In this document: positions 6,993 through 36,204 of the stretch, piece after piece | Position numbering within the stretch: position 1 is the first letter of the stretch | Layout of the letters: each line of letters starts with the position of its first letter | Assembly: GCA_049999805.1 (NCBI GenBank) | Contig: JBNGIO010006320.1 | Coordinates: 418,354 to 463,789 of the forward strand | Direction of reading: 5' to 3' | DNA from: Folioceros fuciformis | Lineage: Eukaryota | DNA: 45,436 bases | Notes under the pieces: generated by a model | What the model saw: only the letters and a program-made list of their open reading frames with translations | Database searches by the model: none | What the model was told of the DNA's origin: nothing | Made by a program: the position numbers and the translations under genes

Positions 6993-8280
6993 CCCGTCCT
7001 AGGCTGGGCTGCCTTTTACAAATGGACGAGCAAATTGAGAGATACGAAAGGCGGCACAGCTAGTAGGATAGATAGCACGGCCTTGCAACATGTGCTGCAT
7101 GTTTTACATATTCCAGATTACCGCGCACTATAATAACTGTAAATCTGGGACCCAACAACACCGAGAGACAAAGATATGTTCCGGATGAGGTTACATGCAT
7201 ATATCAGGCACCGTATCACCTATCAAAGCTGGGGGAAGAGCAAGGTTCAGAAGCCAGACCTGCATATACTTGTGAGAACAACGCCCTCCAGAGGCAAGCC
7301 TCAATGCAATTTGTGCAGGCTGCTAGTTGGGATCAATGCTGTAATACCCACCACATGAGCGTAGCTCCATCAACTGTGTAATCCATGCAATCTCAGATTG
7401 CTTGCCTGCAACAGGACTATGTAGCTTCAATGGCCCCCCAAGAGCATATGCAGAAGCGGTGTTTGTGTCCCAATGCACGTACGTACAATGAAGGGCAGAC
7501 GAGCATCATACCGTCATGTGGAAGAAGGCGGGGGGAAGGGGAAGGGAAGGGAAGGGCGGGGTCGTGGAAGCATGAAGAAAAGGAGGGAGGGAAGGAGGGT
7601 ACTGTAGTCGCCGTGCACTGTATTGAGATGCAGTCCACCGACAGGAGATGAGACAAAAAAGTGCAAAGCGGCAGAGAGGCGCAGGGAATCAAAAGAGCAT
7701 GGAGTAACAGAAATTGTTAAACAATTTGCACGCAAGTTGTGTCAACTTGTCAGCCGGGGTGCCGAGGTAGTGACACAAAGTCACACAGTCAAAGTCTGAG
7801 CTGCACATGGTGGAGGAGGGTAGCATCCAGCCATCATATAGCCGCCAGATGGTGATGATGAGTTTGTGCCAGGACATGTGTCCAGCCCGAGGGACATCTG
7901 TCAGCCAGGCTTAGCTGTTGCAGCGTCTCACGTAGCCGTCAGGCAACTGGGCCGATCGGCGCAGCTTTACCTGGCCCTGGCAATGCACGCGCACGCACAC
8001 ACACCATTCCACGCGGACATGCTCGCATCGCCTCGGCCAAACACCTTCCCAGTTCAAACAAATTTACTGTACATGGGCGCCCCTCCACGCTCCACCAGCC
8101 CCTGTCTCTGCCCGTGCACCTGCACCTGCAGGCCCAGCCCCCGGCCCGGCCTGCCACAATAAATGGCCGCGGACCCATACAACCGGATGGACTGCCCTCC
8201 CCCGCTCTTCCTCCTCCCCAATTTCCACTCCCCGGGCCTCCTTCTCGACACAATTTTGCACACTGTCCGCGGCGATAGAC

Positions 8281-10536
8281 ATGGGCCTCGCTGCTGCCTG
8301 CATGGCGTGCGCCGCCCTGCTGGCTCTCGCCCTTCTTGCGGGCGAGGGAATTCGGCTGCTGCTGGCCTACAGCAGGCACATGGTTATCAAGAGAACCATG
8401 CAGAGGCAGGGCGTGACCGGGCCCGAGTACAGATTCGTCATAGGCAACATGTTCGACATCTCCAAGTTCAAGGACCAGGCCGTTGCGCAAGACTTGCCTG
8501 TCGGGTGTCACGACATTGTGCCCAGAATCATCTCGCACTACTGGGTTTGGTCGCAGCAATACGGTGCGCCGCCTCCTCTTTTGGTTGCTCGCAATACCAA
8601 CGCGTTGTTTCAACCTCCCACCAGTTCCGAATTTGTGATCCTGGGCGCGTGGGTTTGGGGTTTTGGACCTGCCAGACTAAATCATTCTGTTGCCGCATTG
8701 TGTGGGCAGGGAAGAGATTTTTGTTCTGGTGGGGGACGGAGCCGAGATTGACCGTCACGGAGCCGGAACTGATTAAGGAGATCATCTCCTCTAAGTTCGG
8801 GTTCTTCGAGAAGTCTCAGTTGCAGCAGAAGATGGGACGTTTTATTCTCGGGAAAGGTTTGGTTCTGGCGCAAGGGGAGGATTGGGCGAAGCAGCGTCGG
8901 GTTGTTGGGCCGGCGTTTCACGTGGAAAAGCTCAAGGTATTCAAGGACGGTGCCTTTATTTCTTGGATTTGCGGTTGTTGTTGTCGATGATGTGATGTAT
9001 ACGTGCTGGGTGAATTCAGCCTGAAGGAAAGAAGAAAGGGTGCTGAGGGAGTGTGCTGGTGTTGTGCAGGGAATGGTGGGGTCCATGGTCAAGAGCACAG
9101 CTCAGATGCTGGAAAGGTGGGACAAGATTGTTGCGGATGGGGCTGGAGCAGCGGAAGTGGAGGTGAATGAGCACTTCTCCATGCTCACGGCGGAGATCAT
9201 TTCCCAAACTGCCTTCGGTAGCAGTTACGAGAAAGGGAAGCGCGTGTTCCAGAAGCAAGTGCAACTGCAGAAGCTGTCTGTCAAGTCCTCGAAGTATCTT
9301 CTCATACCGGGCTACAGGTTAGCTCGTGACTGGGTGTGGAACAAATGGCGAAGACTGAGTTCAGAACGTTGGTGTTGGTGTTGGTGGTTGTTGTTGTTGG
9401 ACGGTGAGAGGTGTTGAATATTTCCCTGACCGCTACGAGCTCGGAAACGGATGGACGATGTGCAGATTCCTGCCCACCGCGTCCAACAGAGAGATCTGGA
9501 GATTAACATCGGGCATCGAGAGGTCTTTAAGTGAGATTGTGAAAGCACGGAAGGACTCCATCAGGCTGCTAGGAGATAGGGCAACTCTGACTGGCACCAC
9601 GGATCTTCTGGGAATGATGCTGGCTGTGACTCAGGGAGTTGCATCTCAGAAGAACCCGAAGCATCCGGAGTTGACAGCACAACAGCTCGTGGACGAATGC
9701 AAGACGTTCTTCTTCGCAGGCCACGAAACCACTGCGTTGTTGCTTACGTGGACCATGATGCTTCTGTCCCTGGAGCCAGAATGGCAAGAGCGAGCCCGTG
9801 CAGAAGTGGACGAGGTGTGCAAGGGAAAGCTTCCCCAGGCTGACATGCTGTGCAAGCTCAAAGTTGTAAGATACAGCGCCTTCCTCCCCAGCCCAAACTT
9901 TGTCTTGACGAGTGTGATGCAGTTGAAAGAAAGAAAGGAAAGGAGGGTTGAGAGCAGTCGCAGGCGCAGGCGCAGGCGCAGGCGTGGGTTACACCATAAT
10001 TGCGTTTGGTTAGGAGAAGAAAGAGTGGCTCTGACAGTGGGTTTGTGGCGTGGCAGTTGGGGATGATCCTGAACGAGTCCCTCCGACTGTATCCTCCTGC
10101 CTCATTGCTTTCACGGCAAGCACTCAAGGACATGGACCTAGGAGACTTGTTCATTCCAGCAGGACTGTCCGTGTTTGTACCAATTCCTGCTATTCATCGC
10201 GATCCAGAAATATGGGGCCCGGATGCGCATTTATTCCGGCCTGACAGATTTGCTGATGGGATCGCTAAAGCCTGCAGGCACCCAATGGGATTCTTGCCGT
10301 TTTCTTCAGGTCCAAGAAACTGTGTTGGTCAAGCGTTTGCGACGATGGAGGCCAAACTGGTGTTGGCTATGATTCTTCAAAGATTTTCCTTCCTGCTATC
10401 CCCCAACTACTGCCATTCGCCTATCTCTGTGCTCACTCTGAAACCACAGTACGGGATGCAGCTCGTTCTGCAGAAGCTGAACAGACCGCGAGCAGTTGTG
10501 GATTTATCAAGAACATCGCAAAATAGTCAAGCCTGA
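8281..10536 (+). CDS. Cytochrome P450, CYP72 clan (CYP735/CYP715/CYP709-like); exons 8281-8563, 8710-8936, 9070-9317, 9466-9865, 10057-10536
   Basis: N-terminal membrane anchor, I-helix DECKTFFFAGHETTA, K-helix ESLR, PERF-like FRPDRF, heme motif FSSGPRNCVG. Five-exon structure typical of the CYP72 clan; all GT-AG joins keep frame. Confidence 0.93.
9959..9983 (+). repeat. (CGCAGG)n microsatellite in P450 intron 4
   Basis: Four tandem CGCAGG units. Confidence 0.85.
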
Positions 10537-14000: not shown

Positions 14001-17000
14001 CATTTTGGGAGGGACCCGAATCTCTGGTCCAGCATATGCAAGTCCAATCGCCCCTCCTTGCATTAACCTTTGGATCTGTAAGGGAAAAGGTAATGTAAGG
14101 CCTTGCACTCGTTAACAGAAAAGGATCAGCTAGTTATCCTCTAAGTATCACCCCACAATATTGAGTCTCTTGAACACAGAGGAATTTGAGGACAAACCCA
14201 TGACAGAAGAGTCTGATCGAGATATCTCATCCTGATGCTCTCTTTCCACTTCTTTTTCCTGCAACCGGTGTGCCTTTCCCACTCAGAAGGCTTCATTAAT
14301 TTACCACTGGTTCCACACTGCTTGCACTTGCAAGATATCCTGCAGACAGAAACCATAATTCAAGATGTGAAGGCAGCACACGTGGGTAGGAGTGAAGAAG
14401 CTTTAACGAGCAGAGCCTCAATGATGAAATTCAATACGAATCTTACTGGTGTATCTTCGGTAGATAATCAGCTACCATTTCAGAGCACACCACAGCCACG
14501 GTATCAGGGACGTCATATGGACTCGCTTCCATGCCAGCTCTGAAGATGAAAAGAAGAGAAGAATAAGTTGCAGAAGTCTACTAAGGCTGCCAAGCAGAAG
14601 GATAAGGTCACATATCTGTTTAACAGCGTACCTTCCAGCCAGGGTTTTCTTTCTTGGTGTCTGCGTCTTTCTGCACTCAGGGCATTTGTATGATACCTTC
14701 TCCAGTTCCTGCTTACCATAAAACACATGAAAATACAGTACATTCACTTGAACTTCTCCATTGCAACTGCATGTCAGGATCTTCACCTTCAGACTCTTGT
14801 TGCTGATCTTATCACAGTCAGCATGGACCCATATATTGCATGCATCGCACTGCACCTGTAGCCAGGATGAAGTTGTGGATGCCGGCAGTCAGTACTCAAG
14901 TAGGCAATCTAACACACATGAAACGATCAGATTTTCTGAAAGGAGAAACTCACCCAATTTCCTTTTTCATTGGGTTGCCAAACCTTTTTGCAAACCCCGC
15001 AATACTGTCTTGACCTATACAGCTGGAAATACATGCAGTACGTGAGAAACTCAGTCTTTCTGATCCTTCTAACAGAGAAAAGTGGCGTTTGTAGCCGACC
15101 TTCACACAATGCTTGCAAAGAGGGTTATCTTCGACACCCGCATTTTTTGATTTTGGAGCTGCCTTCACAGAAAGCTTAGCATCACATCCAAAACACACGC
15201 TTTTGGACGTGTGGCTTGTTGACGCAGGCTGCACACAAATTGTCGACAAAGGAGATGGCATTTGTGAGGGATAGGTCAGATAGTACTATTTGACAGAAGA
15301 CCATCAGAACATGAGACTACTTAAAGCCATTTTACCCAGATGGTTTGCAGGACGAACCTTCTTCCCTGTAGGCTTCTTTGCACTCTTCTCAGTGTCGCTT
15401 ACAGTATCGTCTGCATCTTGACCCTCAATCGTATCCCCTTGAGCATCCACTGGCGAAACTGAAGGATGGCACTTGCCTGGAACTCCTTGGTACGAATCAA
15501 ATCCTGCATCGGCTAAGGTAGCTTCACTGATCGCTCCAACAAAGTCCAATGGCCGGTACCTGTTAAAATTTGTCTGTCCCTGGAACCTGCAAGCACAAGA
15601 CCAATATGAAGCCAGTGGAAATGCAAGGGCTTGCATCAAATAAGTAAGGATTTGGCAGGAACCATTTAACTTCAGATGGAAATTCACAAGAGAAAAGACT
15701 GCCTACGCCCTTGTTTCACATACCTGTCCAAATAGTCCATAAATGGATAGATCATACCCTCCCTAACCCATGCGTAATCCTGCAGAATTAAGTCAAAAAC
15801 GTCAGCACAAAACCAAAGAGCCGACCTCCTCCAGACTGCCCACTTCTGTGTGCTTGCCCTAATCCCCTCCACACTTGTACTGAAAAAGACTTGCAACAGA
15901 TGTGACATACCCGCTCTTTCTTTTTTGCCAATGACTTCCCAAAGAACATGACGCAAAGACGGCCAGGGACACAGAGGCGCCGGACACTATCTGGGACTTC
16001 CTTGATGGGGTCCACGACCTTTGCAGGCCACACAGGATCGTTCTTCTTCCCTGATCTGGCCCAAACCACATCACCCACATCGAACTCTGCCAAATCATGT
16101 TTCGATGAACCAGCCACTGCTGCGCCACTGCTTCTCACTGCAGAATCCCAGGTGACTTCAACATCAGAAAGTGGGGACGATTTGTGTTTCAGCCAGGGTG
16201 CTGCACGTGCAGCACCTTCTGAATCCTTCAATGCCTTTGGTGACCATTCCTGAGAATTTCCTTGACCACTATCTCCTTTCCCCAGAGGAGTCCCATACTC
16301 CTCCTTCACAGGATATGATCCAAGGTTACCTTTATCCTCTGAGCCCTCTCTCATTCTTTTCGGCGGATTATCATACATTCCGGATCCTGAGTCTGGATCC
16401 TCAGAGTGGTCTCGCTTGAACCCCTTCACAACAGGAGCTCCTTTCTTTAAAGGCTCCATTACAGAGTCCCGGAGACGGGATGGAAGCTGTTGTGCCCTGC
16501 CTCGTTTGGATCGTATCAACGGTGCTGTATCAACCTCCTTTGGCGTCCTGCCATCATCTATAGACCTCTCTGCATCTCGGTCTACATCCCTGGTGCCGGA
16601 GAGGACACTGCTGTCAGTATTGAACATATAGCATTCCCCTATACCAACATCATTAGTAGAGCCATTGCTCTCTGCACCAAAACTTGACTGCCTCTTGAAA
16701 ATGTTCTTTGCTCTCCGTAACACTTTTTTGCGTACGACATGTACACCCTCATGTAAAGGGTGGTCCTGCTTTTGAGTGCTGGCGTGGACAACATTCTCAG
16801 GTTCTGCAGTGTTGTTCTCCTGCATCGAGCCTGAGGCAACCTGGACGGCATCCACAAGCATGTCCAACGCGAGCGGATAGCCTGCCTTGGGAGCAGCATC
16901 CGCAGGAAAGCCACTGTCAGGTTGGACTTCTCCACTTTCCCCCACCTTCCGCCTCTTACTTGGTGCAGAAGCACTATCATCTGATCCTTCCGGCCGAGCG

Positions 17001-20000
17001 TGAGCCCTCCCAGGCTTCATTGTCAATGCATTCTCCGCATCTTGAGAATTGGACTTCAAGTTAACAGGTGAGCTATCCAGACAGGGTAGTGAACTTTGTT
17101 CAGGAAACACATTTGTCCCCTGGTCACCAGAAACAGCTGTTTTAAAAAACAACAAGCAACAGTCAGCACACAGTGCCAGGCAGGTTAAAGTGCAAGCCGG
17201 CAAGCATTTCAGTTTACACACAAACTCCCATTCCCTGACCTCCCCTCTCTAAAAGAAACGACAGCGACAGTGTTGTGCGAACCCGAAACGGGGGGACTCG
17301 AGACAGGACCTGGTCCTCCAAGCGGAAAAGAGAGACAGAACTAGTTTCACACCTGAGGAGGGCTGAACCAAGTTTGCACAGGTTATGTCTGACAAAGAGG
17401 CAATTGTCGCATCATGTGCCACTTGCTTGGAAGGCTCAAAATCACCACCATGAGGACATTTCAACTCCATTCCATCAACAATATCACATTTTTCTGGAGT
17501 AGGTGGTGCAGGCTCCCCTTCCTGAAGAGCATCACGTGTCTCACCCCTTTCTGGATACACCCTAACTTGGATGATCTGATTTTCCGAGTTTACCCTGTAG
17601 CCTCTCCCCTGGTCCTTGCCCATAAGCAACCTTGATTCCCTCGCCCTACCATCAGAGTGACCTCTCAACGGAATGAGATCGGAGCAGTTTGAGGGGATTG
17701 GGAACCTGGGAGCGACCTCAGATTGAGCAGGTTGGAATCTATGGAGAGTATTATGTTCCTGTCCTTGATGCAGAAGAGGTAATGACTGGTTTTGCAAACT
17801 GTCAGCGTAGAGCCTTCCTCCAGTGGCTAACAGTGATCCTGTGTCCATGACATGGTTATCTGCATGACATCAATTTGGAAGACACCTTGAGGAAGGAATC
17901 CCATGTTTTCACGACGAACAGGGTTATTTAGTTTTTCAACGTACACCCCTCACATTTCCCAGACCCCTTCCATATCTTTCAAAATGACTAGATATGCACT
18001 CCGTCCCTGTCTGAGTTGTAACTTTCGATTCCAAACCCACAGACGGCTCATTAATTACCTCCCGAGACGGAAATGCAACGACTCTAGGTACTGGTTCAGA
18101 AATTTACCTGGCGCTACAGAAGACTGATGAAGATGCAATAACTCCATCGTTCCTCCACCTGCACCACCTCCACCGTGATGACCAAAGCTATCTGGATTCG
18201 ACCTGGAGTCCACCACATCATTGCTGGGCCTTGTATTCCAGCCATTCCTATCCGCTCCCATCCAGTGCTGCTGCTTCTGCGCCATGTTACCGTCGCCTCT
18301 GCTGATCAGCGCCCTTCCTGAGCCTTTCACAAGCTGGTCTGCACTGAGCTGAGGGGGCCCGTTATGCCCCGGGCCCAGGCAGCTCCTTCCAAAGTCACCG
18401 TTCCCCGCCTGCTGAGCGGCGACGTCCAAGAATTGCTCACCCCCAAGACCCGAATCCCTTGCCCAAGTTAAAGCATCTGCGGCCTGCTTGTAATCGAGAC
18501 CCGGTACCCCGTTTCCCTCGAACTTGGAGAATTGATGTTGCTGCTGCTGTTGCGGCTGCTCCTGAGCCTGCATAACGTGGTTGTTCCTGAGTCGCGAAGC
18601 CTGGAAAGAGGTCACGCTCTGAATCCGCTCCCAATTGTCATGCACTCCATTTACCCCATTGTACGCGATGTGGCGGTTATAGGCGGGTCTGTTGGTCGGG
18701 GGGAATCTCTGCTGCTCGTAGTTGGCGAACACGGGAGCATTGAAATTGTTCTGAAAGCTGGGCATCCCCACGAACCTATTCACCTGCGACGTGTAGCTCT
18801 CATTCGGCGCAGCAGAATGCAAAAATTGCGGGGCAGGAGCCGGAGTAACATACCTCCTGCCCATCTGCGCTCGGTCCGCCTGCATCTCCATGGCAGGATT
18901 CCTCTCCTGGCCGAACTCCTGAGCAGGAAAGGAGGCCCGGGACTGCTGCATGGACGATACGCGCCCGGTAGAGAACTGCTGAGTGCGCTCGATCTGGGTT
19001 CTGATATTGTTGACAAACTGACGATGCCCCGCAGCAGTCTGAGTCTCCCACTGAGAGGGAGATATAGACATCGCTGCCGCCCACATGGGAGGCTTATTGT
19101 CCCTCTGATATGCGCCAGACTCGGGCATCCTGGAGAAAAATGTGTTGCTGCTGGTATTGTCGTGCATTCCCTCCGGCACAGGTTGCGTACTAGAGCTCAA
19201 GGACAGCCTCAGCCCTTGCAGAGGCCTCTCCGCGTTGTTGGGCATAGCAAACGCTGTCTGCTGCTGCAGGCCTCTGGACTGCCCAGAAATCGCGACTCCC
19301 AGCCCCTGCCCATGCCCCTGCACCTGCACCCCCTGTCCTGCTCCATCCCCGTTGGAGCCCATGTACCCATTCTTCTGCTGCTGGTGCAAGGAATTTTCAA
19401 AAGTGATGCCATTGTCCAACGCCGCCAGGACGCCCTGGTCTCTGGCCATCGCCAACCTTGAAGCATCCTCGGACACAGGTCCTTGATCCGAAAGATCAGC
19501 GTACGGATACCCGGCGAATCCGCCATTATTCGTCTTCATCTCAGCCGGGGGCTTCCAGGGAGTCGGAGGCGAGCGCCTAATTTCTGCGGTGACGATTTTG
19601 TTCCCGACACCATTGCCATTGCCCGTAGGAACGACCTGCTGCTGGTGCTGCTGCACCTGCTGTTGCACCTGCTGCTGTACCTGCTGATAGTCCATCGCAT
19701 CTGCCTTGTGCTGGCCCCAGAAGTCATCCGCAGGGCCACATTGCAGCGGAGCCTCCTGGCAGTAAATGGAGGCCTGCTCCGGGACGGAGGATTGCAGGAT
19801 GGGCATCGAGTTGAGGGGAGATTCGCGAGAGCCAACAGGCTCGGAATCTGTAGGGCGGTCGGTCACCTGCACAGGGGAGAGAGTAGAGGAGGCAACAATT
19901 CCCTCAGGCGAAGGCAGAGTAGGAGGAACAGGGTTGGGGAGCGGAGGAGAAGGCTCACCCAACCTCTGCAGGGCTTGCGGAGGCTTCCATGGCTGGATAG

Positions 20001-22827: not shown

Positions 22828-25800
22828 CTATTGAATTGTTTGTCTCCTATACTCCTTCGGAAAATAAGTAACCCCATGATTATCTTGTAGACCGTAAAAC
22901 GTCTCACCTTCACTTACATCTTGCATTGCAGCTATTTTCTCAAACTCTTTCTTAGCTATGTCCTTTTTACCTTGAATGATCAAGGTATTCCCATATTTGA
23001 ATCTCACAGTGACATTTGTTGGCCTCTCATTAATTGCCTCATAATATGCCCTTTCAGCACAACTACATCAACACATGAAAGATGATCTATCACAAATTGC
23101 CTATACCCATAAGTCAATCAATCAATCCTAATGCGCAACAACGTTACAATAATTTCATACCTGTACATGCCGGAATTCGCAAATGAATCACCTATATCTT
23201 CCAACAACTTGGGATTGAGAAAGGTTTTCAAGCTTTGCTCGAGTGATAACTCCGCATCTTTAAATCTCTCGAGAGTAAGAGCCATTAGTATCAAGTATCC
23301 CCATATCTTAAAATTTGTAATGTCCTTACAGTTTCCCTCTACCAAAAAAATCTCTGCTTGTTCAAAGTTTCCCAAACAGTAATACGATATGCCAGCTCCA
23401 AGCCAAAAGCTGCAAAATTCCGGCTTCAATTTGCAGCCTTTGATAAACAGCTTTCGAGCAACATTATAGTTCCCTAATTGTAGATTTGAATACCCAAGTT
23501 CGATATAAACATAAATATTTAAGTTTCTATTTTGAATTGAACGTTCCTCGATGTACCGCCTTAACTGCATTGTTACATTCGAAACAAATCAAAACTCAGT
23601 TAAGCATTCCAAAGTTTTCTTTCTTTTTGATTGTAAGTAAACGATGCAACACATTAGTCTTCTGCACTCGCACCTTTTCAAATGCGAAAATTGCATCCTC
23701 ATGTCTATGTTCAAGATATCTCAAGTGACCTAAACTATACCACAAGGATGTGTCATGCGGATGCTCTTCCAAGGATTCTACAATCACTCTTCCAGCTTTA
23801 ACATATTCGCCCATGACTTCATATGCTTTTGCACAACATAGGGCTTTGTCGGTCTCACAAGAGAACAAATCGGTATCTACTCCCAAGAGCTGGAAGCATT
23901 ATTATTAATGCATATTATTTCATATTAATTTTCTGATTTTAAAATTTATAATATACATAATTATAAATCAATCCAAGGTGCACATAACATGACTCGATCA
24001 TAAAATGTACCTGAATGGCTTCCTTCGGTAGATGAATATCTACTAAGAAGATTGCTGCATCCACGAAAGGTGAGCTTGCTCCTAATGCACGAGACTCGAA
24101 GATGGGTTGAGAAAGACAAAATGGAAAAATCCATTGTGGGGATAGTAAAAGGTGCGGTGGAGCATATTCATTAAGATCTTTTTTCAATAATTCATGCAAT
24201 TTCTCAGCTCGTCTAATGCACGTTTTGCTATGTATTCTTTCTCCACGAGCTAAATAAACCTGATAGGTTTGCCAAATATCGTCGTGCACTTACTTAGACC
24301 AAGTATCGAAAACGATCTCGCACACATCGATACAATATGATAAGACAAGACACTCTGTTAAGTGACTTACTTGACTAAGAAGCATCCATGGAATGAACTC
24401 TTCGTCAATGTGAACATCTGTGGCTTTGCGAAATAAAACTTGTGCTTTTTCCAAATAATTTCGATGCCACATAAGTGCTCCCAGTGCCATCAAGCTTAGA
24501 ACATGATCTTGTTTCAATGAGATTGCCTCCCTGAAACACTCTTCTGCTTTCCCATGATCTTTAGGTTTAACCTATGCGTAGTTCAAATAAACATGTTTGA
24601 GTTGCATATAAATAGTCAAATTATTTAAATTAAATTAAATAATTAAACATAAATGTGAAGGGGATGGTGTGTACCCGCATGCAAAATGTTCCATATTCAA
24701 ACCAAATATCTGGATCTTTAATGCCAATTTCACCAATCAACCTCTCTAGATGATATTTATTGGCACTCCTCCAATCTGCATCATTCTGTAAGTAATTTTA
24801 TTGGAATTTATAGTTTCATATTTATTGTGTCATATTAAAATATATTATAAAATATATATTTTAAGATATAATCAGTAATATATATGATCATCTATTATGT
24901 TCTTTGTTACCTCATATTGATCAGCTTTTTCTCTTAAATTTTGAAGCTTAGCAATGGACTCTGGTTGGTCCCTATCAAATCTTTCCGCCATCTTTTCACA
25001 AGTGTTCTTTCTCTATATAATAAATAATAATAAGTAAATAAATATTGGATATATTAAAATTTTAAGTAATCTCATAATATTAACTTATACTTTCCTCTTA
25101 GTTGCGTACATACATACCTTGTTCAGTAGATCCAACAAACATTCTTGAATTTCGTCCATTAAATACATATATAATGCATTACAAAACTCAAACTTTCCTA
25201 CTCCCAAAGCTTCTTGCTTATCCACTTTGAACTTTTCAGTAGCTATTTGCATGATCTTATCTTTCATATCCTCTCTAATCTGTTTCCATGTTCCAACAGC
25301 ATGAAGTTCTTGAACAAGAATCTTCCTTCTCCTTTCTTTGTTCCTCGATCTTTACAAAAGGATCAGAAATCCATGTACTTTAGAATGCAGATTAGAATGA
25401 AGTAACATGTGGATAACATAATTCTTCAAACCAAACCATGCACTTTACCGGTTACTTGGTTCATCATCTGGGTCCTCCTTCTTAGCATTCGAAGGATCTA
25501 GTTTGCCATCATCAACCAGAGTGTGATAAAAGTTTGCAAGCTCCACAGCACTTGACATCACAAAATCTCTAAATTCTTGGGCGGCAATTTCTCCTGTGTC
25601 ATAAACGGTAGGAGCTTTTGGCTTTGCTCCGATAAACGATAATAAGTCGACTTCAGGTTGTGGAGGAGGTACCCAAATTGGCTCTAATGGCCGACTTAGC
25701 TTTATAGTCATGATAACTTCTGCTTGGACTTGATTCCATGCATTTAGTATTGGAGTCAAGGGTGTTTGTTCTGAGTTGGGTTTTTCTCCAGCTTCTTTGG

Positions 25801-28163
25801 GTGATTTGATGTCCTTAGCTGATTTAGGTGACTTCACTTCCTTTTCCTTAGTGCCCTCGACGGCTGGTTTTCCCTTTTTGCTTATTGCTTCCTTTGTTTT
25901 AATCGTAGTAGTCTCTTCGTCATCAACTGGCTTTGATTTAGCTGTGACAACTCTATCAATTTGAGGAGGGCATAGTGGCGGAGGTTCTTCAATTACAAGC
26001 TCAGGAAGTATTGGACATGTTATTGTAACCTCTGTGGCGCCTTCTCCAAGCAAACCTGACAAACCATACATATCAAAGTTTCCATGATACCTTTGGAAAA
26101 AAGGATCCACTAGATCAGGTTGCTCATCCTTGAGATATCTTGCGATTTCTCCTGAATATTTCTTCTTCTTTTTTAGACTCAAGAGTAGCTCGTCTACTGC
26201 TTCTCCAGGCAAAAATCTTCTACAAGAAGCTGCCTCCCACTTTAAGAATTTCTTCTTTCTCTCCAAAAGTATTTCTTCTTTTGTTTTCTCAACAACTTTG
26301 GGAGTATCTGAGTGTTTCCCATCTTTCGAAGAATTTTTAGCAGTATTTTCCTTTGCTCCTTCTTTTCCTACCCCTTTGATTTCAAGATCTCCTTCCTTCT
26401 TTTTGGTTTTCTCTCCTTTCTCCTTGACCTTACTAGACTCTTCCTTTTCTTTGGTTTTCTTTGAATCTCCTATCTCTTCATTAGGTTTGTTGCTATTCAA
26501 TCCGGCATCTAGAGTTTGAGCTTCTGCTAGCTTAGCTTCTTCAAGCAATTCAGGGAATAAGACTGGAGGTGGTGGGTCCATTTCAAGTGTATCAGTACTT
26601 GCAGTTATTCTACACAACTCATTCTTTTCTTCTTGCTCAATTCCTCTTAAGTTTTTCCACCATGCGCCTGTAAATCCAGGAATATAAAATCCTAGCTTAT
26701 AGTTGAAGGGATTAGTGCCTTGCTCAAAAAAATCTAAGACTTTTAATGGAAGTGGTCGCACTTTAACTTCAGTAATCTCCATAAAAAGACCCTCTTCTTG
26801 ATTGATTTTTGACAAAAGAGGGTAGCTTGTATGCAGTGTGACTTTAAGGGAAGCCCCTGGAAGCAAAGCAGGCTCTTGTGTTGCATCGCTCTTCCCCTTC
26901 TTGTTTGATGATTTGTTGTCTTTCCCCTCTTTCCCTCCCTTCTCTATTTTCTTCTCTGGTGGGTTCTTTGGAGGTGCACCTTTTTTTCCTTTTTTGCCAC
27001 TTGTTTCATCTGAACTAGACTCCACTAGTAGCTCTAGTGGATAAGCAAATTGCAAGGGATTTTCAGGGCTGCCTTCGGAGTGTGTGTGAAAATGTAGTAG
27101 AGGGTTTAGATCTACTTTAGTCTTTGCAATTGCAACTTTGGAACTACCATCATGTGATAATTTGTAAAGTGTTATTACGATTGGCTCATGCATAAATGTA
27201 TGCCACAGCTTCCATTCACTAAATCTTTCAATTTCCCTGAAGATTCATGAACTAGAGATGAAGATGGGCTGTCGATCAAGACAAACAAAAATACATGTAA
27301 AAATCGAACAATAAAAAAAAAAATTTACCTGCCGACTCTCATCTCAAAGGTGGCTGGTACAGGTGGCGGAGGTGGCTCCTCGGCTTCCTTGGCTTTCTTA
27401 TTTCCCTTCTTGTCATCTTTCTTCTCTTGGGTTTTCTTCCCCTCCTTTGGAGTATTTCCTTTGCTATGGTCACTTTTCTTACTACCCGGCGTGCTTGGTG
27501 CAGAATGCACAAAAACCTCCCTACCGGGCATGATATCTTCTTTCGGTGGGATATTTGGTGTTGAACCCTTTAAAGGCAGAAGCATCTACATGACACTAAA
27601 GTACATGAATGTCAGATTTACACTCGGCCAATACATCAGCAGAAACCAAAGTTCTCACACTAGTATTCAGGCATGTATCCTCCTAAAACATAGGCTGGGT
27701 GTTGTACTTGATACGGAGCAATGTCAATTTCAGATGCGTCAGCCGACATCGGGCTTCTTGGTGTCTTGGGAGATCTGGATGACTCAAGGTCGCTGGCCTC
27801 CTCCCCAGATGAGGAAGCCTGTTTCTCTCCTGGAAACTGAATGGAGACTGCTGCTCTAGATTTCGGCACATCGTCTCCTTCCAGATTCCACACTCCTTCT
27901 GCTGTAAGAACGTCCAGCCTAATCACACAAGGAGGAGTCGGTACGATAGGCGGAGGCTTTTCCACATGTATTCTACAATGTGGTTTGTATCCATGATCTT
28001 CCGGGATGTAGGGCTTCCTGATTTCATCGGAGAAATCAAAAGATGGATTTACTCCCACCGGGCCTCCTAATTGCAACGGCGGCACCTGGTTGAGATATTG
28101 GAAGTGGGCAACTTCTCTTTCTCGAACCGGATCTACGGGGTAGGATTTGGGAACTCTGGCCAT
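22828..28163 (-). CDS. CFAP70: Cilia- and flagella-associated protein 70 (CFAP70/TTC18-like; C2-like N-terminus, C-terminal TPRs)
   Basis: Well-supported exons: 27585-27329, 27236-25449, 25349-25118, 25012-24911, 24785-24675, 24571-24371, 24259-24011, 23889-23674, 23564-23161, 23062-(22828). Motifs HEPIVITLY..AKTKVDLNPLL, RRRKILVQELH..GTWKQIREDMK..EKF, LYMYLMDEI, ERL..PDIWFEYGTFC..KAEECFREAISL..HVLSL, plus TPRs, match recalled CFAP70. Inclusion of the first exon (from 28163) and the exact 3' end are uncertain. Confidence 0.8.
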
Positions 28164-28827
28164 CCTTGAGAACCGTCGACGCTCAATTATGCAGTGAGTA
28201 AAGCTCTTGCCTCCCGAGTTTCTTTCTCACGCCCATCCATATCATCGAATGTCTGGCATTTCCGCTTACTCCAGGCTGGAAAGACATCCCATCTTTCCCA
28301 TGTCACTTTCATTCCACCACCTCATGAATGTGTAGCTCCTGTAGAACGAAAGTATTTGTTCCCACACATCATGCCCCACCAGAGTCATGCTTAGGGCATG
28401 GCAGGTTCATTTCAACCTCAACCTGAGGCGGTCTTCTTCTCATGCATCGTCTACAGGTGACATCAGCCTCGTGCATGGCGCCCGGCGCCAACACAGACAG
28501 CTTCTCCACTATCGTCCCTACAAACGCTTTCCGAGACACAGCGACCGACGGGGCAAGCGCTATGCAACCGACATAAGACGGTTCTGTTTCGTCTCTGTTT
28601 AGTCTACATCCAGCCCAGCTTTGCATCTATGCTAATTTCTAACTAGGGCCAGACCTGGGACGGTGCTGAAACAGGCCTGAACTAGCCCTAAACTACCACT
28701 TACTGTCCAAGCCTCTGATGATGCACTCTTCACAGCTGACCTTCTAACTGAAAGAACCTCATGGTATCTCTGTTACACACGGAGACAAGAACAAGATGAA
28801 GAACGCAATCAGCGTGAAAACCTGGCC

Positions 28828-28911
28828 GGTGCTCAGATACAGAATGGATTTAGGTTTCATCCAAGCCTTACAGAAGGCTCTGCTTAACGAGATATAGCTC
28901 ATCACTGCACC
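28828..28911 (-). ncRNA. U30: Box C/D snoRNA, U30-like (25S rRNA 2'-O-methyl-A guide), copy 1
   Basis: Minus strand: terminal stem GGTGC/GCACC, C box GTGATGA, guide ATCTCGTTAA, D' CAGA, internal stem AGCCT/AGGCT, C' GGATGA, element AATCCATTC, D box CTGA. Guide and extra element are complementary to the conserved LSU rRNA sequence GAAUGGAUUAACGAGAU. Confidence 0.88.
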
Positions 28912-29388
28912 CCAAGCTCCTGAGGCCACTGATAAAGGGCACAAGGCAGCAATCACAGTGTTATCCTCCCTGCAGGAAATTTTTGCATCACACATCTGCA
29001 GCCCTAGGAGGTAAATCGGATCGACCTCAGGTTGGTGGCAAGCTGCTGTGGTGTCTGGTAAGGGCACCGGCTGTAAGATGTGAGAACGTATTGTCTAGCC
29101 TTCACCATCCAACCGTGCGCTGTATCACAATGCTCTGCCTCCACCATTGTAACAAAAATGGATACAACAAGCGAAGGATTCACAGGTTATGCTACGGGAC
29201 ACGCACTAAACAATTCTTTGAATGGGACTAGAATGCAAAACTCCCTAAAGAATCCACCTGAAGAAACAAAGAGAGAACACACGCAAGTACATCAAGGCAC
29301 AAAAGAGGAGGATTCCGCTGCACATAGTGCGATTCTGGCTGTCTGCGCGCAAACACGAACCCGCTGTGAGCAGCAACAACAACGAACT

Positions 29389-29949
29389 TCAGTAGTTCAC
29401 ATCCGCTCCCTCCTCTGCATATCCCCAGAAATCGTTGTCATCGTCGTTCTGCTTAGCAGACCTCTTGGCAGCATCTTCGCCCTCCCGGGGCTGGAAGGGG
29501 CCGCGCCGGGGCTTCCTCCTGCGCGCGGCCTGCTTCCGTTTCACGATATCCTGCGGTGTCTCGAAGAAACGGCGGCGGCGGCACTCGGGAATGACTCCCG
29601 CCTGCATCACAGCCTTGCGGAAGCGTCGCACCACGCTGTCAGCTGGCTCGTCCTCCCCGCAGAACACCTGCGCGTTGTAGGCTCCCTTGAACCACATGAG
29701 ATTTGCATGCTGCAGCGCCGGGCAGCTCACCACAGCCGCAGCGTCTGTGCTCCAGCTCAGAGCTTCTGTTGCCGCTGCTAGCGCCGAGTTCTCCCGGACT
29801 TGCACCATGAGCCGGCCATGACCGGGGGTGCTGCTCACGCTCACGCTGCCGCTGCCGCTGCTCCCGGATGTGGATGCGTCCGAGGAACAGCGCGGCGTGA
29901 TGGCCACTCTCGCCAAGGACCCCAACATCGTCGCCATCGCCAATGCCAT
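29389..29949 (-). CDS. RPS21: Plastid 30S ribosomal protein bS21 with transit peptide, no intron in the CDS
   Basis: Ser/Ala-rich N-terminus, then LQHANLMWFKGAYNAQV..EDEPADSVVRRFRKAVMQAGVIPECRRRRFFE..KRK, the plant plastid S21 signature. Confidence 0.92.
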   Translation of the reverse strand: MALAMATMLGSLARVAITPRCSSDASTSGSSGSGSVSVSSTPGHGRLMVQVRENSALAAATEALSWSTDAAAVVSCPALQHANLMWFKGAYNAQVFCGEDEPADSVVRRFRKAVMQAGVIPECRRRRFFETPQDIVKRKQAARRRKPRRGPFQPREGEDAAKRSAKQNDDDNDFWGYAEEGADVNY

Positions 29950-32125
29950 CTCGCAAATGCTTAGGGCCTTCCTCCTTCCGTCCCAACGGGTTTGGCTTAT
30001 TTACCGACTCCTATCCTGACTAAGTGATTGCAATTACGTCCGAAACAATGTGTTTCCGAAAACCCACGTTGTAGCCCAACTGGCATGCAGAATCAGGCAG
30101 GCAGACAACGAGGCTGGAGGGCGTGGAGAACGCTGGGCTGGGACATATGCTGATGTTCACACTTGGAAGGGAGTTCACGTTTCCGAGTCGAGATTGGAAA
30201 TTGGAATGTCGATGTCTCTCACCACATTTGCAGACTGTGGCATGGTTCTCGAATGCTGCCGCCTAGCTGTCTACCCCATCAGCTCCCAAATTCGTTTTGT
30301 CAACTTGACCGAATGGCTGAGAGTACTCCTGCAGGCAGCGTAGCTGCTGCTTTCACTTTCACTCAGCTTCCACATCCATTCTGTCACCTTCACAGCCACT
30401 AGCTTGAAGTTAGTGCTCCCGCCATTGTCTCAAGGGACACAGGGCTGTTGTGCAGGTTATGCCATGGATGCCCTTAGACGGATGATCCGCAAGTGGTCCG
30501 CAAACCCTTCATTCTTGCAAGGGCTTGCACTTTCTCAGGGGGTGCTAGCGTTCACAGTAGGAAGGAATTGTTCATGTTTCTGAATCCGGAATGGCCCGGA
30601 ATGTCCACAAACCTCAGAACATTTGCAAACTGCAGCATGATTCTCAGAACCGTAGAGAGCAACAGTTTCACGATCAAAACATCACGGCATCCATCACGGG
30701 TCTGGGCTCAAATGCTCAGAATCTCATAACTGTATTAGACAGGCACAGCAAGGAGGGTTTGGATAAGGTAGATACATATATTCATGCGGCATAGGTAGCA
30801 TGGCGCTGCAAACGCGGCCGCATCAAGCATGGATCAAGAGCTTGAGTTCTGGGGAACTAGCGGCTTCATACTCAGGTGACCAGGTGACACTATCCATGGA
30901 TTAAATGGTAGCGGCTACGAATCACGAAGGCTTCGGTACCGCTGCCAGACGAGGGGATGGTCTTGGATCGTGCGCATTCTGACTTCAGTTGCTGTAACAT
31001 GCGTCCATTAATACGGTACACAGATCGCCTCTGATTGACGGTGCCAGATGACCAATTTGGTATCGTGTGATCAATGCATTTACAAATTCAAAACTTGCAT
31101 ATGCTAGTAATGTGTATTGGCGATGGACCAACTTGTGGATCTCTATGATACACCAAGTTATGGACGTCTATATGATGCACCTAGATGATGATGCACTTTC
31201 AGTCAATTCGAGGGCGTGTCCCGCAATGCCGAGTGGAAAGTGGTGTGAAGCCCAGCGTCGGACCTGGAACGATATCTTCGGATCGGATAGGGCATCCGCC
31301 ATCAACCAGTGTGCTGCAGGATCTGGGGGTGCTTGAGGTGCTCGACTGTTACGGTATTTCCAGCCCTTTTCCTGAAGCCGTAAGGCTGCTTAAGAAGCTG
31401 AGATCGATCGTTGACGCCCACCGGCACCCCGTTTTTCGTCCCGCTCCCGCGCATCAACCCTGGCAGTTGCGGAGACCAATTTCGTCGGTGCCATCCCTCT
31501 CTTTCGGAAACCTTGTCTTGCTCAAGGAGCTGTGGATCGGAGCCTGGGACGGCGGCATAGAGTGGTGGCGAGGCGACGACGAGCGGTCCTCATACAAAAG
31601 TGCGACTTCTGGATCTATCCCTCGCTAGCTAGGGAAGCTTTCCAACTTGAAGATATGGCTTGCCGCTCGCCTGTCCTTCGCTCGTCTTCCTCCTCTTCAA
31701 TTTCTACCAAAGAAGTCCTGAACAAGCTGGTCATTCACGGCACTCCGCGTCCGTGATTGTGGATTGTCCGGCGATTGTGAGAGGGTACTTCAAATAAGCA
31801 TACAGCTTTTTAGTTCAGGAAGGAGGACCTGTACAGAGGTTAGAAATTCGATGTACAGGTCGGGAATTTCTTCACCTTGTAATCCTAAACCTCTGCCACA
31901 AGGACCTTACCAGCAGGTTTCAGGGTTTGGATCAGTGTGGCGGTGCAGATCAGAAGGGCCCCCGCACATCAGGTGGTTTTGGTTAGTGTGCAATCTGTGC
32001 GGCATCGATCTTTACACATCCTAAAACCTGCAGATGCTTCAGGGACAGCATGCTAAGGGCGCATCTCAGATCCGACTGAAACAAACAAACAACCAGAACA
32101 AATATAAGAGGAGGACTATTTCACC

Positions 32126-32209
32126 GGTGCTCAGAAACAGAATGGATATGGTTTTCATCCAAGCCTGCAAGAAGGCTCTGCTTAACGAGATAAAGCTCAT
32201 CACTGCACC
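32126..32209 (-). ncRNA. U30: Box C/D snoRNA, U30-like, copy 2
   Basis: Same 84-nt architecture as copy 1: GGTGC/GCACC stem, GTGATGA, ATCTCGTTAA-G-CAGA, GGATGA, ATCCATTC, CTGA. Differences lie outside the boxes and guide. Confidence 0.88.
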
Positions 32210-32400
32210 TTCTTTCCGACAGCGACATGACTCAGCCAAAACCTACAAGGCAAATCACAGTCATATCCGATGCTCACGCTCCAGACAAAGATCTGACCTG
32301 AAGCCCAGCGTTTCGCGATGCCGGTATAGCCTACGGTAGAGATAGCAGCACTCCATGACAGGACTTCCAAAACTCAACCGAATCGCCTGAAATGCTGAAA

Positions 32401-32422
32401 TTTATACGACTCTAACCCTAAT
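32401..32422 (-). promoter_or_regulatory. TATA box plus adjacent telo-box-like element; probable promoter of the snoRNA host transcript
   Basis: Minus-strand TATAAA at 32406-32401 and AACCCTAAT at 32414-32422, ~200 bp upstream of snoRNA copy 2. Telo-box plus TATA is typical of plant ribosome-biogenesis and snoRNA promoters. Confidence 0.6.
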
Positions 32423-34839
32423 TTGGTCTCGGCCACCTATCAACCTACGTGTGGTTCCCTGATGGCAAGGATACGCTGGATGGTCCCTAAGGCCCTTGGA
32501 CAAGTGACCTGCCAGCAAACAATGTCATGTCCTTAGGATCACGGGTAGGCTGTCTATAGTTCAGCAACTAGAAGATGGTTGACTTCGTGGGACACGCACA
32601 GGAATGAGGTTTGAAGATAGGATGAGAAGCATTCATGAAGCGTAGCGAGTATGCAGCTGCAGAAGCCGCGTCAGGTTAGAATCTAGAGCTACAGTCCTGA
32701 GAGGAAGACTTGCAGTTTGAGGTGACCGGGTGGGGCGACATCGATGGATTGAACTCCCCAGCTTAACGGTTATGTCTGAAACCTTCCTTCCTGGGGGGGT
32801 GAGGAGGGATGCCAGTGTCCAAGCTGCGCTTCACGTGTGTGAAGTAGGCATTGTCCAGAATGCTTGATACGGTGAGATGCACCGTTACAACCATACCAGA
32901 CGATCACGATGGCTTGGAGCAAAATATGTAGCAGGCTACAGTAGCGTGGTCACACAGAAAAGAGTCCACGAAAACTGCCTCATCGGGAGGATTACCTACA
33001 CTGAGTCCGGAATGGAGTACCGACCCATATCTTAGAGAAAGTTTGGTCCACCACCTTGAGCAAACACGCCATCAGTCTTGCGTACCAGCCCCTCCCTTCC
33101 CCACTCGTCAGAGGTTGTGCTTCCACGGAAGGGAGCGTGCGACAGGTCGCGAGTGTCTGTATCAGCAGCGCAAAAGCCGTGAAGCTGGTGCAACGTGGGA
33201 GGGGTACTTTGTTTCTCTCCGTCTTCACGTCTTGCTCACATTGCACCGAGATTTGCAACGGAGAACCCCATGTTTTGGGACTCACTAGCTTTGGGCTCGT
33301 GGCTGGCATATGCTTAACCCACCTGACGTTGGCATCAGAGATACTTACACCATTTGGCCACGGGATCATTCCGTTTGCGTTGAGCCTTCAAGTTAGCCGG
33401 TGAACGTGTGCAAGAAGCATGCCTTCTGCTTTCATTTTTGCACCCTTCCACATTTTGTCTGCCATGCTGGTCGCTCTCATCTGTTCGAGGTTCCGGAGCC
33501 ACGCCTATTGCCGCAGGCTGTGTCAGCGATGCGCACATAATGATGACCGAAAAGGACACAGTGCAAGGCTGCCTTGAGACACCCGGGCGTGGTAGGTACT
33601 CTGGAACGGAAACGTTGCAGAGAAGTTACAGGGACGCGGACACGGACCATGATACTCACGGCGCCATGGGACGGCGAGTACTGCAGGGCGCGCGACAGTT
33701 CTTGAGGTAACGGTACCGTCTGCGAAGGGCCTCACAAACTGTCATACCTACCCACCTTCGTCCGGTACAACATTTTTGAACCAGCATCGTTTTCTGCCGC
33801 TCTGCAGATTCAGAGAGGAGAACTTTGTGCTCTTAGGAGCTTAGGGAGCGTTACAAGTAAGACCTTGTTGTCGTTAGAAGTGGATCGGATTTCTCACACT
33901 CCTCCCTCCATTTTGTCTGCACCAAACCTTGAGAAAGCAACCAAACCAAATGCGCCTTCGCCGCAACCGTCCTTGGAACAAATATGCTCAGATGAACAAT
34001 CTTCAGCCTCCATATGCTCACAATCGAGCTCGCTTCTTGTGTTTGTCCCACCAGTCCAGCCTAACTCAGACACTGCTGTACTGGTGACTGTAATCCTGCA
34101 TTTCGCACATTACCAGAAAACTATAATCATTTCTTCAACGAGTCAGAGAAATCTTTGAGAAACAGCTACACTGAAACTCGCTGTACCCTGATTCAGGATC
34201 TTCCTAAGCTGTCTGTTTTGGGTTTGTGCGACTAAGAGTGCCGGCATCTTTCTTGAGACTGACAGTGACGAGGAGACCTAGTCGTCCACGTTGATCACAA
34301 GGCTGGCACCATGCGTGCTGCTTGTAAAGAAAGATCATACAATCAGTGAGGTCTGAAGACTCGCAAGGCAGTATAATCGCTACGGCCGAAAGACAGTAAT
34401 TGTCTGAGAGGGGCCACGCCCTTCATGGCCACTGACAAGATGCGCCCCTTCCGAGTTCTTCAGCGGCAACGAGGGAGTCAGATGGTGTCTTCTAGTTCCC
34501 CCGATGCGCAAATTCCAGTGCGCTGCAAAAGGCGTGGGAGTCTTGTTGGAGCAAGCTTTCACTTGAGACCGGGCTTTCGCACCGAGACCGCAAGATTTGG
34601 CGGCCTGTAGTTTTCTTGTGTGCCTCACCGACCAAGGGCCCCTGTGACGTCTTTTCTCCCTCGGCCCGCTGTTGTAAGGATCTGCGATGTTAGCAACTTC
34701 TGGCAGTATAGTTTGCAATGGGAGGTGTTTTCCCTTCCTTCAGCGAGCCTTGACGAAATCTTTGTGTGGACGTTGCCCGTATGTAGATTGAGACTGACAT
34801 TGTAGAGCAAAGCTTGATGAGAGTTTTTGTAGGCATTCT

Positions 34840-36204
34840 ATGATGTGGTGGACCCCCGTGAGGAAAATTCGGGATGGAGGTTGCAGGGAAATGGTGGTTG
34901 CTGGCGGGGGGCAACCTAAGCCTGCTCTTGGACAGCTGAGTCCTTGCTGGATGTGTTGGATGCTCCTCAGGTCCACGAGGATTAAGTTGCTTTTCATGAG
35001 CGGGCTGCTAGTCATAACCTTCCTAGCCTTCTTTCCTCGGGTTTTTCTGACGACGCTTTCAGGGAGTCCCACGATTCCTGACACTAGGTCTGCTAATGTG
35101 ACTTTGAATTCCGCGCTTCATGACAGTTTGTACAAGTTCGCCTCCGTTGATGTTTACAGTGAGAAGGTCGAAAACCCAATCATAGCTAGGTTGCTGGATA
35201 CAGAAGTCGGTTCTGATGGGGTATCCATCGGGAAACAACAGACGGACCGTGGCAAGCTGGTAGCAACCATTCAGTTTGGTGATCGTTGGGAGTACAGGCG
35301 GTTTGGAAAGGAGAAGTATGACAGACGGCGTTGGACGAGGCCAGAGAGGTGGGAAATTGAGCTTCGGAGGTTGAAGTACGGGCCCTACTGGCCTAAGTTT
35401 TTGCAGATGTTACGAGAATGGTCTTCTGCCAGGAAGTATGATCCTCAGGTCATGGTCCGCTTGATGGATGTGGTCGGAAAGCCACTCAGAAGTTTTGGCA
35501 CCTCAGACGAGAATCACAAGTATGGGACATGTGCGGTGGTGGGAAATAGTGGAATTCTTCTTTCCAAGGAGTATGGGAAGTTCATAGATTCACATGACAT
35601 GGTCATCCGGATAAATGGTGCGAGCACAAACACCTTCGAGCGCTATGTAGGCTCAAAGACTACACTCGCCTTCGTAAACAGTAACGTTCTTCGGATGTAC
35701 TCTCGGTTGCGAGGCCAGTGTAGGTACCCCTATGGAGGGCACGTTCCAGTGCTTGCATACATGTGCCAAGCTGCGCATCTCATGGACGTTGCTTACTGTC
35801 AAGGGGTGCAGCCAGAAACTCCTTTGCTTGTCACTGACCCAAGCTTTGACATCCTATGTGGGAGGATATCGAAGTGGTACTCCGTCCAGGATTATGTCTT
35901 AAATGGTGGCAACATTAGTTGGTGGCAATCGAAGCATGGAGGAACGCTGTTTCACTACTCCTCAGGGATGCAGGCCGTTGTTCTTGCCTTAGGACTCTGT
36001 GAAGAAGTGCACCTCTTTGGTTTTGGTAAAGTTGCAGGTGTGAAGCATCACTATCACAGCCAACAGAAGGGAGAGCACTCCATTCATGACTATGAAGCAG
36101 AATACCTTTTCTATGATGACCTGGAAAAGAACAGGACGGGTAACATAGCCTTTTTGAATGAGGTGACAGGATTTAATGTTCCTCTTGTCCGCATTTATCA
36201 CTGA
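34840..36204 (+). CDS. GALT29A: Glycosyltransferase family 29 (sialyltransferase-like; beta-1,6-galactosyltransferase GALT29A-like), intronless
   Basis: Type II membrane segment (LLFMSGLLVITFLAFF), sialylmotif L CAVVGNSGILL..IDSHDMVIRIN..VGSKT, motif S YSSGMQAVVLALGLCEEVHLFGFG, HHYH, motif VS HDYEAE. The start could be a downstream Met. Confidence 0.9.
   Translation: MMWWTPVRKIRDGGCREMVVAGGGQPKPALGQLSPCWMCWMLLRSTRIKLLFMSGLLVITFLAFFPRVFLTTLSGSPTIPDTRSANVTLNSALHDSLYKFASVDVYSEKVENPIIARLLDTEVGSDGVSIGKQQTDRGKLVATIQFGDRWEYRRFGKEKYDRRRWTRPERWEIELRRLKYGPYWPKFLQMLREWSSARKYDPQVMVRLMDVVGKPLRSFGTSDENHKYGTCAVVGNSGILLSKEYGKFIDSHDMVIRINGASTNTFERYVGSKTTLAFVNSNVLRMYSRLRGQCRYPYGGHVPVLAYMCQAAHLMDVAYCQGVQPETPLLVTDPSFDILCGRISKWYSVQDYVLNGGNISWWQSKHGGTLFHYSSGMQAVVLALGLCEEVHLFGFGKVAGVKHHYHSQQKGEHSIHDYEAEYLFYDDLEKNRTGNIAFLNEVTGFNVPLVRIYH

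Follow-up and report, generated by a model that had tools for sequence, protein, structure and literature searches.

Downstream of a plastid-type rps21 gene, and on the same strand, lies what is, judged by its sequence, a genuine box C/D snoRNA gene of the U30 type (copy 1), a predicted 2'-O-methylation guide for cytosolic 25S rRNA. A sister copy (copy 2) lies farther upstream in the window, by which we mean the whole stretch of 45,436 nucleotides that was analyzed. The RNA around copy 2 is spliced, with copy 2 in an intron of a transcript that is apparently non-coding, and copy 1 was found only in unspliced RNA continuous with the rps21 coding sequence. We put at about even chances the reading that copy 1 is a functional U30-type paralogue that plants would free without splicing from a longer Pol II transcript, itself unspliced. 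Below, the two snoRNAs are described, followed by the genes and RNA around them and by the other origins that could be proposed for the copy 1 RNA.

Copy 1 and its sister copy

The elements of copy 1, and the position of copy 2, are as follows.

28828-28911, minus strand: U30-type box C/D snoRNA, copy 1 (reading of the sequence, C/D scan and Rfam)
28911-28907 and 28832-28828, minus strand: terminal stem of copy 1, GGTGC/GCACC, 5 bp
28905-28899, minus strand: C box of copy 1, GTGATGA, which fits RUGAUGA near the 5' end
28893-28884, minus strand: guide 1 of copy 1
28882-28879, minus strand: degenerate D' box of copy 1, CAGA
28863-28857, minus strand: C'-like box of copy 1, TGGATGA
28849-28842, minus strand: guide 2 of copy 1
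28836-28833, minus strand: D box of copy 1, CTGA, which fits CUGA near the 3' end
32126-32209, minus strand: U30-type box C/D snoRNA, copy 2, the sister copy (BLAST, MAFFT, C/D scan and Rfam)

Copy 1 is 84 nt long, and its 5' end was measured 477 nt past the rps21 stop, in agreement with the preliminary description of this DNA, which had placed it about 480 bp downstream on the same strand. A small hairpin is found between D' and C', and the terminal stem is lengthened into the flanks in the MFE fold. The C' (TGGATGA) and D' (CAGA) boxes are degenerate, yet they have the same letters in both snoRNA copies. Folding of the stretches with copies 1 and 2 revealed no unusual structure (z-scores of +0.33 and -0.43, respectively), and the ORFs overlapping the snoRNA region had no credible Pfam match. 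No tRNA was found within the window, and a tRNA-snoRNA dicistron was therefore ruled out for copy 1.

The top Rfam family for copy 1 was the plant snoU30 family (RF01283), with 34.4 bits and an E value of 8.9e-4, and copy 2 reached 29.1 bits against the same family; both copies fall short of its gathering score of 45 bits, and the whole window gave zero Rfam matches at the gathering threshold. The locus is named U30-type from its guide elements, not as a curated Rfam member. In the Rfam alignment of copy 1, the antisense element before D' (ATCTCGTTAA) equals the snoU30 consensus at 10 of 10 positions, and the element before D (ATCCATTC) does so at 8 of 8. Under the C/D guide rule, an antisense element of at least 10 nt is complementary to the rRNA, and the target is the nucleotide opposite the fifth one upstream of D or D'. 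Since the fifth nucleotide upstream of the copy 1 D' is a U, the predicted methylated base is an A, which fits the 25S Am2322 assigned to Arabidopsis U30 in the accessible part of PMC8053127. We infer the rRNA target of copy 1 on these grounds. Overall, the C and D boxes and the stem are in place and both guides agree with the Rfam consensus, and the methylation guide claimed in the preliminary description would be a real U30-type box C/D snoRNA.

When both strands of the full 45 kb were scanned strictly for C/D snoRNAs, copies 1 and 2 were the only loci returned, and a 27-nt piece of the snoRNA is present twice in the window, with 0 expected. The C box, the D box and the 5-bp GGTGC/GCACC stem are also present in copy 2, as found by the C/D scan. 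By BLAST, the two copies are 90.7% identical across 86 nt; 8 positions differ in the 82-nt core, and the D'-C' linker differs at 3 positions. None of the 8 differences falls within the 50 functional positions, by which we mean the stem, boxes and guide cores as we defined them (hypergeometric P = 3e-4). Because of this distribution, both copies look kept by selection, and expression of copy 1 is to be expected.

The likeness of the two copies is limited to the snoRNA itself. Their flanks could not be aligned by BLAST or MAFFT save for one 26-nt match between 28941-28966 and 32245-32268 on the minus strand (84.6%, BLAST E value of 0.76). This element (ACTGTGATT..TGCCTTGT) precedes each of the snoRNA copies by about 40 nt, and it may be due to chance or be the remainder of a duplicated intron.

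Genes and RNA around the snoRNAs

The neighboring genes, transcripts and introns are as follows.

27708-28163, minus strand: first coding exon of a CFAP70/FAP70-like gene (intron 1 is 27586-27707)
27874-29680, unstranded: X1 contig of 1807 nt, depth 49.1, colinear with the window (0 other letters, 0 gaps)
28770-29025, minus strand: predicted intron of the preliminary description (motifs present, splicing not observed)
29389-29949, minus strand: rps21, plastid-type ribosomal protein S21 gene, single exon, 186 aa (ORF and Pfam)
30758-33035, minus strand: host transcript of copy 2 (X1 records and splice joint)
32298-33035, minus strand: exon 1 of the copy 2 host
32076-32297, minus strand: GT..AG intron of 222 nt around copy 2 (RNA joint 32075->32298)
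30758-32075, minus strand: exon 2 of the copy 2 host

The RNA evidence comes from X1, a single public run whose RNA label was guessed and in which 82% of the sampled words of 27600-33000 were found. X1 behaves as RNA, with GT..AG splices at two sites in the window, and as RNA from the same strain as the window: when its contigs were aligned to 24000-34000, 9 of the 12 records were at least 99% alike to the window. Within the part compared, 24000-27339, 30012-30679 and 33352-34000 have no X1 cover. X2 and X3, which represent other organisms in the same study, gave no match at 80% likeness. Contigs of this kind merge overlapping transcripts, carry neither strand nor local depth, and drop rare variants.

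The rps21 ORF contains a Ribosomal_S21 domain (Pfam PF01165, E value of 1.6e-13). The proteins related to it over their full length come from bryophytes and ferns; most bear the name 30S ribosomal protein S21, chloroplastic, and one of them (P0010) carries the name "mitochondrial." The named bryophyte matches show 48 to 59% identity to rps21, and the best match, which is unnamed (P0001, from a 14.8-kb contig), shows 69%. At the N-terminus, some 90 residues rich in S and A form an extension that can be aligned with that of the relatives. In the window, rps21 is without an intron; in the genomic contigs of three relatives (L005-L007), residue 148 is followed by a gap of about 920 nt. X1 also contains a more deeply covered, paralogue-like contig with a depth of 170, about 10% different from the window across 29510-29730. 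The rps21 of the window may be a copy that lost its intron, or else a retrocopy. Three peat-moss-like metagenome sequences (L001-L003), spliced and cDNA-like, extend 532 to 809 nt beyond the rps21 stop with no terminal poly(A) run, and long 3' regions may be usual for rps21.

On the other side of copy 1, the CFAP70 label of the downstream gene is plausible; the large exon weakly matches FAP70 chains with an E value of 0.0075, and TPR repeats are found further down. An X1 contig has a loose end at 27585, the 14 letters of which match 27708-27721, and this gives a second GT..AG intron besides that of the copy 2 host. Within the first coding exon, two X1 contigs abut at 27873/27874 without overlap, and the mean depth changes from 49.1 to 2.83; either an abundant transcript has its 3' end here or the assembly may simply be broken. 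Elsewhere in the window, we noted a glycosyltransferase family 29 (sialyltransferase-like) ORF at 34840-36204 on the plus strand (E value of 1e-37), a PWWP-domain ORF at 15788-17221 on the minus strand, and a cytochrome P450 fragment at 8163-8990 on the plus strand.

The 1807-nt contig runs without splicing from the rps21 coding sequence through copy 1 and into the first exon of the CFAP70-like gene, and it is the sole record over copy 1; a contig of 342 nt covers 29670-30011, the 5' part of rps21. A colinear contig makes co-transcription of rps21 and copy 1 possible, although merged, unstranded contigs prove neither one molecule nor sense RNA. The X1 contigs show no splice joint in 28008-29343, where each of four depth bins gives the depth of one contig. 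This argues weakly against splicing, in that a rare isoform could be dropped from contigs. The contig mean depths (81 for record 3 and 49.1 for record 2) were set aside as a guide to the 3' end of rps21, since a single mean value for each contig hides any local change in depth.

Copy 2 is placed differently. The joint 32075->32298 reads CT..AC on the plus strand and has a depth of 26.5, and the unspliced form was also assembled, with a depth of 27.5. In its 222-nt intron, copy 2 is separated from the donor by 85 nt and from the acceptor by 54 nt. The spliced transcript has no sense ORF longer than 50 aa, and it is therefore apparently a non-coding snoRNA host gene. It lies 2.2 kb upstream, and one intron and one snoRNA were seen in it. 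Since plants are said to have few snoRNA host genes of the non-coding type, the copy 2 host may be the more notable half of the locus. Intronic snoRNAs are themselves few in plants, according to the accessible part of PMC5122169. Antisense to exon 2 of the host, an ORF of 147 aa is found at 31185-31628 on the plus strand; it looks leucine-rich-repeat-like by eye and has no Pfam match. An X1 contig of 2783 nt, with a depth of 145, can be matched to 31296-31652, from which it differs by about 15% and by a segment of 63 nt that is replaced. This suggests that an expressed paralogue exists elsewhere and that 31296-31652 is a gene fragment or a repeat.

Origin of the copy 1 RNA

Next, we consider the signals between the rps21 stop and copy 1. 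A search with a small set of motifs found no TATA, telo-box or site II element in this interval, and none of six AAUAAA-like hexamers. A scan for an snRNA-type USE gave 36 matches, with 33.8 expected by chance. The preliminary description had seen no dedicated promoter here; none of the few motifs was indeed found, but the check is too weak to confirm that claim. Without a promoter motif or an AAUAAA-like hexamer, the interval might lean slightly toward read-through from rps21. A U-/UG-rich stretch at about 29150-29310 would resemble the ordinary 3' end of a plant rps21, ahead of copy 1. The pentamer TGTAA is the poly(A) signal of green algae, and its occurrence at 28777 was dropped as a candidate for such a signal, because the protein matches indicate a land plant, with bryophytes as its nearest likeness.

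To place the neighborhood of rps21 and copy 1 among relatives, 14 rps21 loci on metagenome contigs were gathered with an alignment of S21 relatives (53 to 88% identity in the best segment), several of which extend 1.4 to 6 kb downstream of the gene. The 10-nt guide motif was found at none of these 14 loci, a C/D candidate by scan at 0 of 14, and a CFAP70-like match likewise at 0 of 14. Rfam matches at an E value of at most 1 were sought at 11 of them (L006, L010 and L012 left out), and none appeared. Since the snoRNA is missing from all 14, its linkage with rps21 is, on the evidence of relatives 53 to 88% identical in protein, not an old or conserved feature. The synteny of rps21 with U30 in related plants, which had been put forward as a check, thus finds no echo in the guide motif at these loci.

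In the reading that we hold at even chances, copy 1 would lie within a transcribed, unspliced stretch between rps21 and the CFAP70-like gene. An RNA of about 84 nt would be cut from a longer Pol II transcript, presumably by endonuclease cleavage and then exonuclease trimming, and a snoRNP assembled on the C/D boxes and the terminal stem would shield its ends. The precursor may be a read-through or long-3'-end transcript of rps21. Copy 2, in contrast, would follow the classical mode, from the intron of a non-coding host transcript. In the accessible part of PMC5122169, plant snoRNAs are described as usually excised from their precursors by RNase III-type endonucleases and trimmed by exonucleases. 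As for the promoter that copy 1 depends on, that of rps21, acting by read-through or a long 3' end and with unspliced and spliced forms taken together, comes slightly short of an even chance; a promoter of its own is rather unlikely, and the leader of the downstream gene is a very weak contender. We regard as doubtful the proposal that the rps21 unit is a dicistronic mRNA-snoRNA gene, in which passing the proximal poly(A) site would give an unspliced extension and copy 1 would be carved out by exonucleases halted by the snoRNP. If that were true, a plastid 30S protein and a methylation guide for cytosolic 25S rRNA would share one promoter, and the choice of poly(A) site would set their ratio.

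The preliminary description had proposed instead that copy 1 lies in an intron of the rps21 3'-UTR (29025-28770), with possible NMD control. If this intron were real, copy 1 would be freed from the spliced lariat, and the mRNA could be an NMD target. We consider this improbable. Both splice motifs can be read in the sequence, GAG|GTCGAT with its GT at 29025-29024 and GTAACAG with its AG at 28771-28770, and the additional acceptor-like sites reported near 29258 and 29071 are there as well. The tail of copy 1, 59 nt long and pyrimidine-rich, ends in CAG and resembles the 54-nt tail before the copy 2 acceptor, and the confirmed copy 2 donor also has a C at +3. Moreover, the contig joins the rps21 coding sequence to this stretch, and a spliced form sensitive to NMD could, through its rarity, be missing from the contigs. 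However, the only form in X1 is colinear, unspliced and without a joint, though copy 2 gave both spliced and unspliced forms in the same run, a point that weighs weakly against the intron. The donor GTCGAT departs from the usual plant consensus at +3 to +5, a donor-like GGT within about 100 nt is what chance would provide, and neither AT nor U content sets the predicted intron apart from its flanks. The MAFFT alignment places the copy 2 donor CAG|GT opposite CAG|AT in copy 1, in a region where the alignment is weak (the BLAST E value of 0.76 given above). The flanks of copy 1 would fit a duplicated intron segment with a decayed donor and an acceptor still usable or recently lost. A junction between exons that lies about 365 nt beyond the stop is expected to expose an mRNA to NMD, which argues against a 29025-28770 junction on the main rps21 mRNA. 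As for the idea that one transcript yields both rps21 and the guide, the unbroken contig makes co-transcription possible, but no spliced 3'-UTR intron was seen.

Copy 1 could also be a snoRNA gene in its own right, driven by a promoter within 28912-29388, and the proximity of rps21 would then be incidental; this is unlikely, if less so than the 3'-UTR intron. Such a gene would be in keeping with the missing linkage at 14 of 14 related loci and with the U-/UG-rich stretch at about 29150-29310, if this is read as the end of rps21 before copy 1; most plant snoRNAs, according to the accessible part of PMC5122169, are non-intronic. Neither TATA, telo-box, site II nor USE supports a promoter there, although these few motifs may not be the ones that this lineage uses. 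Furthermore, the snoRNA units of plants are usually clusters, and here a single gene is found. A long 5' leader or leader intron of the CFAP70-like gene as the site of copy 1 is very improbable. The gene is on the same strand, is expressed and spliced, and has its first coding exon entered by the colinear contig (27874-28163), but no joint leads from the snoRNA region to its exons, and the leader would exceed 700 nt and hold several upstream ORFs. The least probable reading of all is that copy 1 is a decaying duplicate, passively transcribed and giving no stable snoRNA. It is true that copy 1 is outside a demonstrated intron and that copy 2 alone could supply the function; the boxes, stem and guides of copy 1 are, however, all intact, and the functional positions carry none of the 8 differences while the flanks diverged past alignment, bar the 26-nt match.

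Comparison with known snoRNA systems

In a limited open-access search of the literature, judged by titles, no chloroplast ribosomal protein gene was found to host a snoRNA. Such a gene is an unusual neighbor or host for a snoRNA, yet this is not a new kind of system. To call the arrangement undescribed, as had been suggested, is an overstatement: in the accessible parts of the sources, exonic snoRNAs in yeast and excision by endo- and exonucleases in plants are described (PMC5122169), and so are NMD-sensitive splice variants from human snoRNA host genes (PMC4233243).

What the locus mainly contributes is a pair of U30-type snoRNAs from the bryophyte-like plants, whose snoRNA repertoire is little charted. 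In this pair, two modes of expression stand next to each other, one in an intron spliced out of a non-coding host and the other in a spacer that is transcribed but unspliced, and the pair may be a snapshot of duplicated snoRNAs changing hosts. Should copy 1 truly rely on the transcription of rps21, it would exemplify a splicing-free mRNA-snoRNA unit in a non-seed plant, and it would physically link the expression of a plastid and a cytosolic ribosome component.

Compared with the U30 snoRNA of Arabidopsis and other plants (RF01283), the copies described here have the same C/D architecture, a similar length, both antisense elements equal to the consensus and a predicted A target. They differ in their scores (34.4 and 29.1 bits, below 45), in a D' box that reads CAGA and not CUGA, and in a diverged D'-C' linker. 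UHG and GAS5 represent the animal type of non-coding host genes for intronic snoRNAs. Copy 2 resembles these cases in that the GT..AG intron around it is spliced and the transcript lacks any ORF above 50 aa; unlike them, the case presented here is from a plant and has one intron with one snoRNA, and no intron is demonstrated for copy 1.

For copy 1, the closest parallel in plants would be splicing-independent processing of snoRNAs, reportedly described by Leader et al. in 1999. As in that system, the snoRNA would be within a longer unspliced Pol II transcript, and folding extends its stem into the flanks. The known cases are mostly polycistronic clusters, whereas here a single snoRNA follows a protein-coding gene.

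In yeast, the accessible part of PMC9351541 describes hybrid mRNA-snoRNA transcripts that form from known introns when splicing is inactivated. These arise under splicing failure, and copy 1 was seen only in contigs, but in both settings the snoRNA is continuous with mRNA sequence in unspliced RNA. Yeast also has exonic snoRNAs that followed the loss of splice signals, as covered in the accessible part of PMC5122169. The lineage is another one, the neighbor of copy 1 is protein-coding, and the homology of the flanks is weak (E value of 0.76). Nevertheless, the likeness is that the sister copy lies in a working intron, while copy 1 is found in unspliced RNA with what may be intron-like remnants, namely, a pyrimidine tail ending in CAG and, possibly, a lost donor.
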